Assembly (NCBI RefSeq): GCF_988242995.1
Contig: NZ_OZ547043.1
Length of the DNA: 64,000 bases
Strand: one strand, 5' to 3'
Part shown: piece after piece, positions 52,864 through 56,660 of the stretch
Layout: each line of letters opens with the position of its first letter
Numbering within the stretch: position 1 is the first letter of the stretch
Translations under genes and position numbers: made by a program
The notes under the pieces: model-generated
The model's input: the letters and a program-made list of their open reading frames with translations, nothing else
Databases searched by the model: none
What the model was told of the DNA's origin: nothing

Positions 52864-54216
52864 TTATTGCCCCGCGACAGGTTTCAGCTCGATACGCTTG
52901 ATATCGCCCACCAGCACCAGGTAGCTCAGTACCGCGATTAAGGCATGAACACCAACATAAATCAGCGCCCCATTAAAGGAGCCAGTCGTGCCAACGATAT
53001 AACCAATTGCGATTGGCGTGACGATGCCAGAAATGTTACCGAACATGTTGAACAGGCCACCGGAAAGACCGCTGATCTCTTTTGGCGCGGTATCAGCCAT
53101 TACTGCCCAACCCAGCGCCCCGATGCCCTTACCGAAGAAGGCCAGCGCCATAAAGCCGATGATCATCCACTCAACGTTGACGTAGTTGCAGAACACCATC
53201 ACCATCGACAGCAACATGCCCATTACGATCGGTGTTTTACGCGCAATGTTCAGCGATCCCGTGCGGCGCATCAGCCAGTCGGAAATAATCCCACCCAGCA
53301 CACCGCCGATAAAACCGCAAACCGCCGGAACGGAAGCCACAAAGCCCGCTTTCAGAATCGACATCCCACGCGCCTGCACCAGATAAACCGGAAACCAGGT
53401 AATGAAAAAGTAAGTCAGGGCGTTGATACAGTACTGACCGATATAAACGCCGATCATCATCCGTGACCCGAGCAGCTGTTTGATCTGCCCCCACTTCACG
53501 CTGAACGGCACTTTAACTTTGGTATTTTGCTGATCCATATTGATCAGCGCGCCACCCGCGGCGATGTACTCCAGCTCTTTCTGATTTACACCCGGATGTT
53601 GATTTGGCTCGTGGATGACTTTCAACCAGATAAAGCTGATGACAATGCCCAGACCGCCCATAAAGAAGAAGACGTGTGACCAGCCCACTTCATGCGTCAG
53701 CCAGCCCATAATCGGCGCGAAGATCACCGTTGCGAAGTATTGAGCGGAGTTAAAAATCGACACCGCCGTTCCCCTTTCCTGCGCCGGAAACCAGGCCGCA
53801 ACAATGCGACTGTTGCCGGGGAAAGATGGCGCTTCAGCAAGCCCGACCAGGAAGCGCAGCGTAAACAGGGCAACGATAATGCCGAATCCACTAAAAATAT
53901 CGACGAAGCCTTGCAGCAAGGTAAACATCGACCAGATAAAGATCGACCAGAAGTAGACGCGTTTTGAACCAAAACGATCCAGCAACCAGCCACCAGGGAT
54001 CTGCCCGATAACATAAGCCCATGAGAAAGCAGAGAACACATAGCCCATTCCCACAGGATCAAGGCCGATATCTTTGGCCATTTCCGAACCGGCGATAGAG
54101 AGCGTAGCGCGGTCGCCGTAGTTGAAGGATGTGACGATAAACAACATCACCACTATCCAGTAACGAGCATTCGTGCGTTTTTCCACACTGCTCGCAGCCT
54201 GACTTAAAGAACTCAT
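52864..54216 (-). CDS. gudP: Glucarate/galactarate MFS transporter
   Basis: ORF track 450 aa, MFS anion:cation symporter-like. Confidence 0.92.
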
Positions 54217-54670
54217 TGTTGCACTCCTGAAAATTCGCGTTAGCCACGCTCACTCTGGACTGCGACATCGCCAGGAAATCAGAGGTGACGTAGGGTGTTT
54301 TTTGCCGTTTTTATAGGTCGTTCGCCGAATACGGCGCGTGTTTATATCTGGCAATAGCAGTATAAAAAGCGCGCCATAGCGGCTCACCGTGCAACAACAC
54401 AACATTAATGCGTTCAATGAGGCCCAATTTTGGCATTAGCCCTGGACGGTGGAATCCACTTCACGGAAATGAAAACAAGAACAAGAAAGGAAGGGTTAAA
54501 ACGAAGAAATAAAGAAGAGTATGAAATGGATCGCTTGACTCCAGGCAAACGCCAGTAAAAATCCGCGCTATGAAGCAGTTTTTACTGGCATTTGCCTGAA
54601 AAGATTCGATTCAGCACCGCTAAAACGGCATTTACACCGCTAAAACGGCATTTACCGCTCGCTGAACGTA

Positions 54671-55120
54671 TCAGGACAACAGCGTGCCCCAATGTTCGAC
54701 CCACGGATTTGATTCCGTTTCCGGTTCCGGGTTCTCACTGGCGTCAATCAACAGCATTTCGCCAACCCGCTGAGCGCTCTGTTCCTGCAACAAGGCATCG
54801 AACTGTTTGCCACCATTGCAGAAATTCACATAACTACTGTCGCCGAGCGCAATCACGCCATAACGCAGATTCGGCTGGAAGCCCAGGGTATCTTTAATTC
54901 CCTGAAAGAGCGGCACAATGCTATCAGGAAGGTCGCCCTGCCCGGTCGTGGACGTAACCACCAGAACATACTTATCCTGATAGGGCAGCCAGTCGCTTAA
55001 TTCAGGATCTTCAAATACCGTTGCTTTGTGGCCCTGCGCGGTCAGAATTGCTTCCGCTTCTTCCGCCACTAACAGCGAATTTCCGTACATAGTGCCGACA
55101 AAAATACCAATTTCCGCCAT
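54671..55120 (-). CDS. yqcA: Flavodoxin-like protein
   Basis: ORF track 149 aa ([15 protein letters not shown]...). Confidence 0.88.
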
Positions 55121-55137
55121 ACCATTTTCTCCCTGGA

Positions 55138-55920
55138 TTAGGAACTTATCTCTCCATCCTGACCCGATGGCGCACTGAACTCAACCCTTTCATTTTCAGG
55201 AAGCAGACCCCGCCAGCCAAATTGTGATAACGCCTGCATCCAGGTGTCGTCCAGGCCCGCGTGAATAGTCAGCGGCTCGCCAGTAAAAGGATGCGTCAAT
55301 GACAACTGACTGGCATGCAGCATTAACCGCTGAAGGCCAAAATGTTCAGCACCGCTGCGATTCTGGCGTAAATCACCATGTTTGCTGTCGCCAATAATCG
55401 GGTGGCGCAAATGGGCAAGATGGCGACGGAGCTGGTGCTTGCGTCCGGTTTTCGGCTCCAGTTCCACCAGGCCGTAGCGCGTGGTCGGGTAACGTCCGGT
55501 CGCTACCGGCATTTCTACGGTCGCCAGACCGCGATAATGCGTCACTGCTGGCTGTGGGCCTTTATCTTCGCGGGCAAATTTATCAGCGATTTTGTCCAGT
55601 TCTTCCACCAGTGGATAATCCAGAACTGCTTCTTCCATCAACCAGCCGCGCACAATCGCATGGTAACGTTTCTGGATTTGGTGCTGTTCAAACTGTTGTG
55701 CCAGCAGCCGTCCGGCCTCGCTGGATAATCCCATCAACAACACACCAGAAGTTGGTCGGTCCAGACGATGAGCAGTAAACACATGCTGGCCTATCTGGTC
55801 ACGCACGGTTTGCATGACCACTACTTTCTCGTCGCGATCCAGCCAGCTACGGTGAACCAGCCAGCCGGAGGGTTTATTTACCGCAACCAGCCATTCATCC
55901 TGATAGAGTATTTCCAGCAT
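55138..55920 (-). CDS. truC: tRNA pseudouridine(65) synthase
   Basis: ORF track 260 aa, RluA-family motif [12 protein letters not shown]. Confidence 0.92.
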
Positions 55921-56249: not shown

Positions 56250-56292
56250 AAAGCAACCTCAATAAGAAAAACTGCCGCGAAGGATAGCAGGA

Positions 56293-56660
56293 ATAAAAAA
56301 AGGGAGCACTGTATTCACAGTGCTCCCGGTTCGTTTCGCAGCATTCCAGCTACTTTTGTTGCTCCCTGCTCATCCTTGACAACTTTTCCTCTGGCCTTGC
56401 GGCCAATCGTTCATCCTGAACTATTGCTTCCTGCTCACACCACCCCGATGTGATACTTCATCCTGAAGTGTCCCTGGCCTTCCTGACCCACCGAATCATC
56501 CTGACCGGTTCTCATTCTCCATCCTGGAGGTGTCCTTTAACGCGTCCTGCGTCATCCTCTTCGCTTCATCCAGAAGCCTTTCCCTGAAACACCATCCTGG
56601 TGTGTCCTTCAGAAGTGTCATCATCCTGATGTTCACTTCGTTGTCTGACTCCCTGTCGAC
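56293..56660 (-). ncRNA. csrB: CsrB small RNA (CsrA-sequestering)
   Basis: Minus strand carries at least 8 CAGGATG-type and about 18 GGA motifs (plus-strand CATCCTG repeats), begins GTCGACAGGGAGTCAGACAACGAAG, and ends with hairpin GGGAGCACTG / CAGTGCTCCC (56302-56327) plus U7. Length about 368 nt, matching csrB. Confidence 0.9.

Follow-up and report, generated by a model that had tools for sequence, protein, structure and literature searches.

A variable 20-bp tandem repeat and a conserved, candidate terminator-derived RNA hairpin between yqcA and gudP of Escherichia coli

Introduction

Among described modes of 3′-end formation, one that closely resembles the locus considered here was reported by Dar & Sorek 2018 (PMC6061677): Rho-dependent 3′ ends lie just after stable stem-loops without a U run, and the rut site is found immediately downstream. 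Rho dependence has also been mapped with the inhibitor bicyclomycin, and Supplementary file 2 of Adams et al. 2021 (PMC7815308) includes a bicyclomycin-sensitive Rho region with its peak at MG1655 2,922,118 (-), a score of 3.98 and p = 9e-8. Read counts upstream/downstream of this position are 114/23 without bicyclomycin and 112/90 with it, approximately 4-fold more read-through. The Rho score in PMC7815308 uses 800-nt windows and neither localises termination nor shows the Rho loading site.

The same stretch of DNA has been read as a site of transcriptional control. A PSSM screen for CpxR boxes (PMC9600279, 2022, Table S4) predicts two of them upstream of gudP, GCAAAtgccaGTAAA at -365 with a score of 11.12 and TTTACtggcgTTTGC at -329 with a score of 9.68. 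In that study (PMC9600279), gudP fell to 0.42-fold in cpxA24 and rose to 1.91-fold when cpxA was deleted, and overexpression of NlpE gave no significant change.

We describe here the DNA between yqcA and gudP in a 64-kb stretch of E. coli sequence, the whole of which is referred to below as the window. An initial annotation of the window had drawn attention to a tandem duplication and an inverted repeat in this gap. Both turn out to be ordinary and of types already described, the former a VNTR and the latter a 3′ stem-loop that probably derives from a terminator.

Results

Genomic context of the yqcA-gudP gap

The window comes from Escherichia coli and carries gudP, yqcA, truC, yqcC, csrB and syd on its minus strand. 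gudP occupies 52864-54216 (-), and yqcA, which encodes a flavodoxin, occupies 54671-55120 (-) and is the last gene of the truC-yqcA unit. Both genes run in the same direction and are separated by 454 bp, and these coordinates agree with the yqcA stop, the gudP gene and the 454-bp gap of the initial annotation. The gap doubles as the truC-yqcA 3′ UTR and as the far upstream region of gudP, and the repeat and hairpin described below both lie in the 3′ UTR of yqcA. RefSeq lists zero annotated features in this intergenic region of MG1655. The region is found in 5,425 of 5,426 complete E. coli genomes, at 99% identity or more in 5,304 of them, and synteny of yqcA and gudP is widespread among YqcA-anchored loci sampled at one genome per species.

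The 20-bp tandem repeat

Two exact 20-bp units lie at 54615..54654 (-), 17-56 nt past the yqcA stop codon; the unit reads CACCGCTAAAACGGCATTTA on the plus strand and UAAAUGCCGUUUUAGCGGUG as minus-strand RNA. Tandem Repeats Finder reports a period of 20, 2.0 copies and 100% matches over 54615-54655, and a repeat search returns 54615-34 and 54635-54 as 100% identical copies, so the perfect duplication first recorded at 54615-54654 is an exact pair. No further match to the 20-mer was found in the 64-kb window at up to 3 mismatches, and none of 100 shuffles gave 2 matches.

Among the 5,426 complete E. coli genomes, a three-unit BLAST query finds at least 2 units in 170 (approximately 3%) and at least 3 in 103, with a maximum of 6. 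The array stands at 1 copy in approximately 5,250 genomes, at 2 in 67 and at 3-6 in 103, where copy number is the number of BLAST places per record, checked against arrays that were read directly. The latter hold 2 copies in EcPF15 and PS_131_S11, 3 in strain 042 and in an ST69 isolate, 4 in WP7-S17-ESBL-01 and 5 in SCU-313, and the flanks around these 2-, 3-, 4- and 5-copy arrays are identical. With 2-6 copies in 170 independent complete genomes, the duplication is neither a sequencing or assembly artefact, a concern raised in the initial annotation, nor specific to one strain.

The single-copy unit exists in two forms: the G variant, which is the unit of the window, matches at 99% or more in approximately 1,700 genomes, and a form with one mismatch, at 95-99%, is present in approximately 3,680 genomes including K-12 (CACCGCTAAAACGACATTTA, a G>A change). 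BLAST places for the 20-mer exceed the number of genomes by 297, which equals the sum of (n-1) across the multi-copy genomes. The arrays explain all 297 surplus places, and the 20-mer therefore exists at no other site in any E. coli genome.

EcPF15 and strain 042, which carry 2 and 3 copies, respectively, differ by 1 SNP over 3 kb, and copy number therefore outpaces point substitution. All multi-copy alleles checked have the intergenic SNP 54426=A in common, and the yqcA/truC-side haplotype of the window is that of a single-copy strain; the shared SNP and the mixed haplotype together argue for one origin followed by recombination. A single origin is further favoured because the junction homology is only 1 nt, and duplications that arose separately would not yield identical arrays. 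One ancestral duplication may thus have arisen on a G-variant allele, later changes in copy number may have come about by slippage or unequal exchange, and the array may have spread between lineages through recombination. We regard the duplication as a harmless copy-number polymorphism with no evident function.

Anatomy of the inverted repeat and its RNA hairpin

The arms of the inverted repeat, at 54542-61 and 54579-98, are complementary at 19 of 20 positions, with 1 mismatch and a 17-nt spacer, just as the initial annotation had described them, and none of 100 shuffles matched this. Imperfect complementarity (77%) reaches out to 35-nt arms at 54527-61 and 54579-613. In minus-strand RNA, the 5′ arm CAGGCAAAUGCCAGUAAAAA (54579..54598, -) ends in an A5 run at 54579-83 and the 3′ arm UUUUUACUGGCGUUUGCCUG (54542..54561, -) starts with a U5 tract at 54557-61. 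The 17-nt 'loop' between them, CUGCUUCAUAGCGCGGA (54562..54578, -), has the appearance of a decayed terminator core and contains a weak inner stem, CUGC (54575-78) with GCGG (54563-66), an 8-nt loop and a bulged A (54562). The layout of the minus strand is CAGGCAAAUGCCAGU-AAAAA-(CUGC-UUCAUAGC-GCGG)-A-UUUUU-ACUGGCGUUUGCCUG, in which the A-tract, the small stem-loop and the U-tract are enclosed by 14 more base pairs.

The hairpin is favoured on one strand. Minus-strand RNA forms an unbroken 24-bp stem in which the lone C/A mismatch of the plus strand turns into G.U, and the MFE z-score is -6.3 on the minus strand versus -2.6 on the plus strand. The full stem in isolation is worth -38.1 kcal/mol, as compared with -8.6 to -9.9 kcal/mol, mostly from A:U pairs, for the fold that can form by the time the U5 run is reached. 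The 'small structured element' proposed at the outset has thus become a very stable RNA hairpin in yqcA/gudP sense, with compensatory changes in other genera. The accompanying statement that no U-tract is present, and hence no simple terminator, has to be revised, as A5 and U5 sit within the arms and orthologues have a canonical terminator core there.

Conservation and covariation

The hairpin belongs to a conserved module of approximately 98 nt (54517..54614, -) that consists of CTGAATCG (54607-14), the hairpin, GTCAAGCGA (54531-39) and TTTCATACTC (54517-26). It forms the core of an 85-nt part framed by CTGAATCG and GTCAAGCGA, also present in Citrobacter, Salmonella and Superficieibacter. A motif search finds the module in 21 species-level genomes, in which these flanks vary little or not at all and keep a spacing of 84-86 nt (75-76 nt in Salmonella). 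A covariance model detects the module in approximately 28 of 80 loci, always just downstream of yqcA, with a score of 108 bits on the minus strand versus 45 bits on the plus strand, and matches nowhere else in 485 kb of loci. In E. coli, 5,382 of 5,425 genomes carry the 100-nt hairpin segment once, at 99% identity or more, and a genome search for other copies of the inverted repeat and of the 20-mer, proposed along with the initial annotation, gives a median of 1 place per genome for each. A dispersed repeat (REP/BIME, ERIC or MITE) or mobile element was considered and rejected, hairpin and 20-mer being single-locus in all genomes. When the E. coli region is compared with Rfam, with E allowed up to 10, only chance-level matches (E > 1) overlap the hairpin, and at gathering thresholds Rfam has no match over the orthologous intergenic regions of four other genera, with csrB the only match overall.

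In an alignment of 14 sequences from Escherichia, Citrobacter, Salmonella and Superficieibacter, 85.6% of cells pair in register, as compared with 34-51% in slid controls whose partners were moved by 1-3 columns. Stem pair 30-62 is seen as AU in seven, CG in three and UA in two of these 14 species, and the inner stem covaries too. G.U cells outnumber A.C cells by 33 to 15 across the 14 species and by 14 to 2 within Escherichia, in counts that are not phylogenetically independent. This excess of G.U, in agreement with the folding energies, points to yqcA/gudP-sense RNA as the strand that folds.

The pairing does not extend to all carriers of the module: the long stem is not retained in Silvania, Kosakonia and Phytobacter, and RNAalifold gives no consensus structure over all 21 module sequences. 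CTGAATCG, GTCAAGCGA and parts of the arms (GGC....GCC, TAAA) stay conserved in the genera without the long stem. Neither a terminator nor a protective hairpin explains this conservation of flanks and arm parts, which hints at sequence-specific recognition. E. albertii and other species that have lost the gud operon are also without the module; the entire segment after yqcA is deleted there, and these losses therefore give no clue to which gene owns the module.

Terminator features in E. coli and related genera

In E. coli, the U5 run (54557-61, -) follows GCGG and one bulged A, 110-114 nt past the yqcA stop. Where an intrinsic terminator, and with it two orthologues of the element, has a G+C-rich stem of at least 5 pairs with a short loop, the E. 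coli core has 4 bp (one of them G.U) around a loop of 8 nt, and it goes unflagged in a terminator scan. The Citrobacter core is CCUUUC-AUUU-GAAAGG followed by GUUUUU, which the scan flags as terminator-like on both strands, and that of Superficieibacter, CCCUU-UAAAUAU-AAGGG followed by UUUUU, is likewise flagged as terminator-like. The T-run is conserved throughout the 14-species alignment. In Citrobacter and Salmonella, there is also a second terminator-like hairpin right after the yqcA stop, a point against reading the module as a 3′-end element.

The tract downstream of the hairpin and the mapped Rho region

Immediately 3′ of the hairpin lies a pyrimidine-rich, G-poor tract (54449..54526, -), a candidate rut (Rho loading) site. 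It contains 19 C, 8 G and 77% pyrimidine and is internally unpaired in the MFE fold. Set against every 78-nt segment of the 64-kb window, its C/G ratio falls in the top 1% and its pyrimidine content in the top 0.01%. The tract is U-rich rather than C-rich, which counts against the Rho reading. The sequence past the hairpin base is GAGUCAAGCGAUCC, and the hairpin is thus a stable stem-loop without a U-rich stretch after it. The Rho region peak of PMC7815308, MG1655 2,922,118, corresponds to 54234 (-), 18 nt upstream of the gudP ATG, and it is from this published work that we take the Rho dependence of the coverage drop.

Among the curated Term-seq ends of PMC7815308, none falls at MG1655 2,922,100-2,922,599 and none is entered for yqcA, truC or gudP; as the list covers dominant ends only and the operon is weakly expressed, this absence is weak evidence. 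Yan 2018 and Ettwiller 2016 likewise gave no matches for transcript ends or starts at the locus.

The gudP promoter region

Phylogenetic footprinting of 69 aligned gudP upstream regions shows promoter blocks that are conserved in all of them, TATACT, GCACGGTGAG, GGGCTnnTGCC and CGTGAA. Downstream of the hairpin in the window are the conserved blocks TTTCATTTCCGTGAA at 54459-74, GGGCTnnTGCC at 54432-42 and AATGTTGTGTTGTTGCACGGTGAG at 54383-406, and the -10 candidate TATACT at 54359-64. The blocks persist in species without the module, which is present in only approximately 28 of 80 loci.

The initial annotation had compared the repeats to an operator array for a regulator such as CdaR, and here the evidence goes the other way. 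The module is missing in most Enterobacteriaceae that keep the gudP promoter footprint, comparison with the K-12 garP-garD control region gives no significant common motif, the module sits approximately 180-290 bp upstream of the conserved putative -10, and the copy number of the 20-mer varies freely. The comparison with K-12 garP-garD was made by common words, no CdaR motif definition having been found in the accessible literature, and gave no word of 9 nt or more in common with the gudP upstream region and a few 8-mers at chance level. A CdaR operator array thus finds no support here. The word comparison also gave rise to the idea of a GCWAWTGC motif, which was set aside because the module is dispensable in most species.

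Discussion

We explain the locus as a VNTR next to a 3′ stem-loop that descends from a decayed terminator and that, together with a rut site, forms a Rho-assisted terminator of truC-yqcA, an explanation in which we have moderate confidence. The stem-loop of the truC-yqcA transcript would descend from an intrinsic terminator whose canonical form survives in Citrobacter and Superficieibacter. In Escherichia, the GC core would have shrunk to 4 bp with an 8-nt loop, and the outer arms would have grown into the 24-bp, -38 kcal/mol stem. A weak core inside strong outer arms should mostly permit read-through of the U5 run, and most transcripts would therefore pass it and expose the pyrimidine-rich, G-poor tract. 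Rho would then end them before or at the start of gudP, so that the decayed terminator now probably works with Rho, and the stable hairpin could block 3′-to-5′ exonucleases and thereby set the mature 3′ end of yqcA mRNA. We infer both this mature 3′ end at the hairpin and the use of the tract as a rut site. In combination, the elements would shield the inducible gud operon from constitutive upstream transcription.

It could instead be that a working bidirectional intrinsic terminator stops most truC-yqcA transcripts at the U5 run, with Rho serving only as back-up. On the sense strand, past a stop codon, A5 and U5 do flank the inner stem, the orthologues in Citrobacter and Superficieibacter satisfy the scan at the equivalent position, and the T-run is conserved in the 14-species alignment. 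The E. coli core, however, is limited to 4 bp with an 8-nt loop, is separated from the U-tract by a bulged A, goes unflagged in the scan, and at the moment of termination would be part of a hairpin of approximately -9 kcal/mol, mostly A:U. Furthermore, downstream coverage, at 20% of upstream, reaches 80% once Rho is inhibited, the Term-seq list (dominant ends only) has no 3′ end at the hairpin, and conservation of the outer arms past the U-tract would be superfluous for such a terminator, which we consider unlikely to be the main activity here. A different kind of proposal places the function in the DNA, as an operator array for gudP in which the arms are inverted CpxR boxes (of the GTAAA-N5-GTAAA type), or sites for CdaR or CRP, and the 20-mers add half-sites (GTAAATGCC). 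Its strongest form concerns CpxR: the two boxes predicted in PMC9600279 are exactly the hairpin arms (GCAAAtgccaGTAAA at 54579..54598, TTTACtggcgTTTGC at 54542..54561), GYAAA-N5-GTAAA occurs at just these two sites in the 64-kb window against an expectation of 0.31, and the gudP level shifts in cpxA24 and in the cpxA deletion (PMC9600279). Each arm complements the other, however, and the two 'boxes' therefore count as one event; the first half-site varies in orthologues (GCAAA, GCATA, GCAGA, GCAAT, GCGTT) and the second is only partly conserved. Within PMC9600279 itself, gudP lies outside the set of promoters used for EMSA, the PSSM screen gave more than 10,000 hits, and the changes seen by qRT-PCR are slight and disagree between the two activating conditions, with no significant change upon NlpE overexpression. 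In favour of an operator more generally, the primary sequence of arm parts and flanks is conserved where pairing is not, and, in our own reading, AGCGA-N6-TCACA adjoining the hairpin is CRP-like in most genera. Compensatory substitutions and the surplus of G.U pairs, on the other hand, point to pairing in RNA, the module lies approximately 180-240 bp upstream of the conserved -10 and is missing from approximately two thirds of the species that have the gudP promoter blocks, the VNTR is free to vary in copy number, and for CdaR there is no motif of 9 nt or more in common with K-12 garP-garD, the 8-mers being at chance. We thus find an operator array improbable, and direct control of gudP by CpxR possible but unlikely.

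Beyond termination, the RNA might act in its own right, as a 3′-UTR-derived or independent sRNA built from the conserved CUGAAUCG..GUUAGC 5′ part and the terminator hairpin, or as an RNase III site. In 21 species, CTGAATCG hardly varies and keeps a fixed distance to the hairpin that follows it, and several genera have a separate terminator-like hairpin between yqcA and the module, which gives the latter the look of a stand-alone gene. RNase III needs a stem of roughly 20 bp, a length that the 24 bp of near-perfect dsRNA exceed. These features have to be set against the lack of an Rfam match in E. coli or four other genera, of a conserved sigma-70 promoter upstream of CTGAATCG in scans of E. 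coli, Citrobacter, Salmonella and Superficieibacter, of an RNAalifold consensus structure across the 21 sequences, and of a 3′ end or sRNA at this position in the Term-seq tables of PMC7815308; in E. coli, moreover, only 36-56 nt separate the yqcA stop from CTGAATCG. We give such an RNA element little credence. Still further from our expectations, to the point of being very improbable, is a plus-strand promoter TTGACT-16-AAAAAT (54535-54562) that would overlap a CRP-like site and drive antisense transcription into yqcA, GTCAAGCGA holding its -35 (TTGAC). It is the sole promoter-like site in 54100-54800 by promoter scan, and the complement of TTGAC is invariant in 21 species; one match against 0.6 expected is, however, not significant, the -10 is without its final T in other genera (TAAAAA or AAAAAC), the tables searched (PMC7815308) have no antisense 3′ end or transcript, and the conserved pairing and G.U bias would be left unexplained. 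The conservation of the flanks without the stem, their near-constant spacing of 84-86 nt and the second hairpin of several genera do leave room for a sequence-specific function, be it a processed sRNA, an RNase III site or the putative CRP-like AGCGA-N6-TCACA site; none of them has an Rfam family, a conserved promoter or a mapped transcript end in its favour. More broadly, the 85-nt module (CTGAATCG ... GTCAAGCGA-N6-TTCACA) of approximately 28 enterobacterial species could as a whole be an undescribed regulatory element and more than the relic of a terminator, either a 3′-UTR-derived or processed sRNA or a Cpx- or CRP-responsive upstream control site, which we think doubtful. If it were true, a control site would couple envelope or carbon status to uptake of glucarate/galactarate, and the strain-variable 20-mer array would tune it.

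The Rho-assisted terminator that we favour would give an unannotated, species-wide hairpin of E. coli a testable role in forming the truC-yqcA 3′ end and in insulating gud, with modest stakes, and would provide an example of an intrinsic terminator decaying into a Rho-assisted one inside one bacterial family. The locus also carries a caution for motif-based prediction of regulons, since a single RNA hairpin supplies, with its two arms, both of the 'CpxR boxes' published for gudP. The 20-bp VNTR, for its part, is a simple PCR-sized marker that sets apart some E. coli lineages, strain 042 and ST69 isolates among them, and that shifts faster than neighbouring SNPs build up.

Comparison with known systems

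The array resembles the intergenic VNTR loci of MLVA typing in its perfect head-to-tail copies, its conserved flanks and its range of 1-6 copies between near-identical strains; unlike them, it is confined to approximately 3% of genomes and to one allele background. A literature search found no published MLVA locus at yqcA-gudP, where one may still be catalogued under another name, and no VNTR or Rho site at gudP. When compared with a CpxR box (GTAAA-N5-GTAAA), each arm of the hairpin does read G[C/T]AAA-N5-GTAAA and is a predicted box in PMC9600279, but these boxes are predicted only, poorly conserved, far from the promoter and equally well the two halves of an RNA hairpin. With a bidirectional intrinsic terminator, the element shares the layout of A-tract, stem and U-tract and its place after a stop codon, and its Citrobacter orthologues are flagged on both strands; it differs in the 4-bp GC core, 8-nt loop and bulge of E. 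coli, and in pairing that runs 14 bp past the A/U tracts, which a terminator does not need. As to the type described by Dar & Sorek (PMC6061677), the candidate hairpin is set apart by internal A5/U5 tracts, which give it the look of a former intrinsic terminator, by the U-richness of its tract and by being without a mapped 3′ end in the PMC7815308 list. It nonetheless agrees with that type in being a stable stem-loop with no U run past its base, in the pyrimidine-rich tract with C in excess of G that comes next, and in the bicyclomycin-sensitive drop in coverage further downstream.

Conserved elements in the gudP promoter and leader

Phylogenetic footprinting of the gudP promoter region (54359-54474, minus strand) across 69 species identifies four conserved blocks on that strand, none of which is annotated: a candidate − 10 element, TATACT (54359-64), together with AATGTTGTGTTGTTGCACGGTGAG (54383-406), GGGCTnnTGCC (54432-42) and TTTCATTTCCGTGAA (54459-74). 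The four blocks are likely to be the sites at which CdaR and RNA polymerase engage the promoter. Closer to the gene, an inverted repeat in the 5′ leader, with the arms CCTCTGA...TCCAGAG (54250-54286, minus strand), lies just upstream of the Shine-Dalgarno sequence. In other genera, the equivalent repeat is ATTCTGA...TCAGAAT, and both sides have therefore changed together; the element is a conserved hairpin of the gudP leader.

A bicyclomycin-sensitive, and hence Rho-dependent, termination region has been mapped nearby, with its peak at MG1655 2,922,118 (minus strand), and was classed as 'orphan' (PMC7815308, Supplementary file 2). The peak is equivalent to window position 54234 (minus strand) and so precedes the gudP ATG by 18 nt. 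It probably ends yqcA read-through and could, in addition, reflect Rho-dependent attenuation within the gudP leader.

Haplotype structure and other features of the window

The window haplotype across 52864-55920 is a mosaic: the intergenic region is of the type found in strains with at least two copies of the 20-bp tandem repeat (042/EcPF15/ST69), while most SNPs in yqcA and truC are those of the single-copy strain S1-JOR-02-A. This split match indicates a recombination breakpoint near the 3′ end of yqcA. Elsewhere, the first 25 kb (1-25000), which carry cysJIH/cysN alongside a type I-E CRISPR-Cas locus that includes cas3 and casA, have a top match of only ~97.4% identity among 5,426 complete genomes and are thus not closely represented among them. 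The small RNA csrB (56292-56651, minus strand; full-length Rfam match, 383 bits) is already known and is unrelated to the yqcA hairpin and the 20-mer.

Comparison of the yqcA 3′ region with other systems

An additional hairpin, CCCTCCC...GGGAGGG, is present directly 3′ of yqcA in Citrobacter, Salmonella, Superficieibacter, Kosakonia and Phytobacter (~2955-2980, just after the stop codon, in the yqcA-anchored loci L009, L024 and L064 from the first three genera); in Salmonella, a T-run comes after it. This hairpin is absent from Escherichia, where the 20-mer region occupies its place. Two motifs flanking the conserved yqcA hairpin, CTGAATCG and GTCAAGCGA(c/t)C...TTTCA(c/t)ACTC (54607-54614 and 54517-54539, respectively, minus strand), are invariant or nearly so across 21 species, in most of which they are spaced 84-86 nt apart. 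The complement of the GTCAAGCGA motif contains TTGAC, and the motif itself resembles, by sequence, a CRP site (AGCGA-N6-TCACA).
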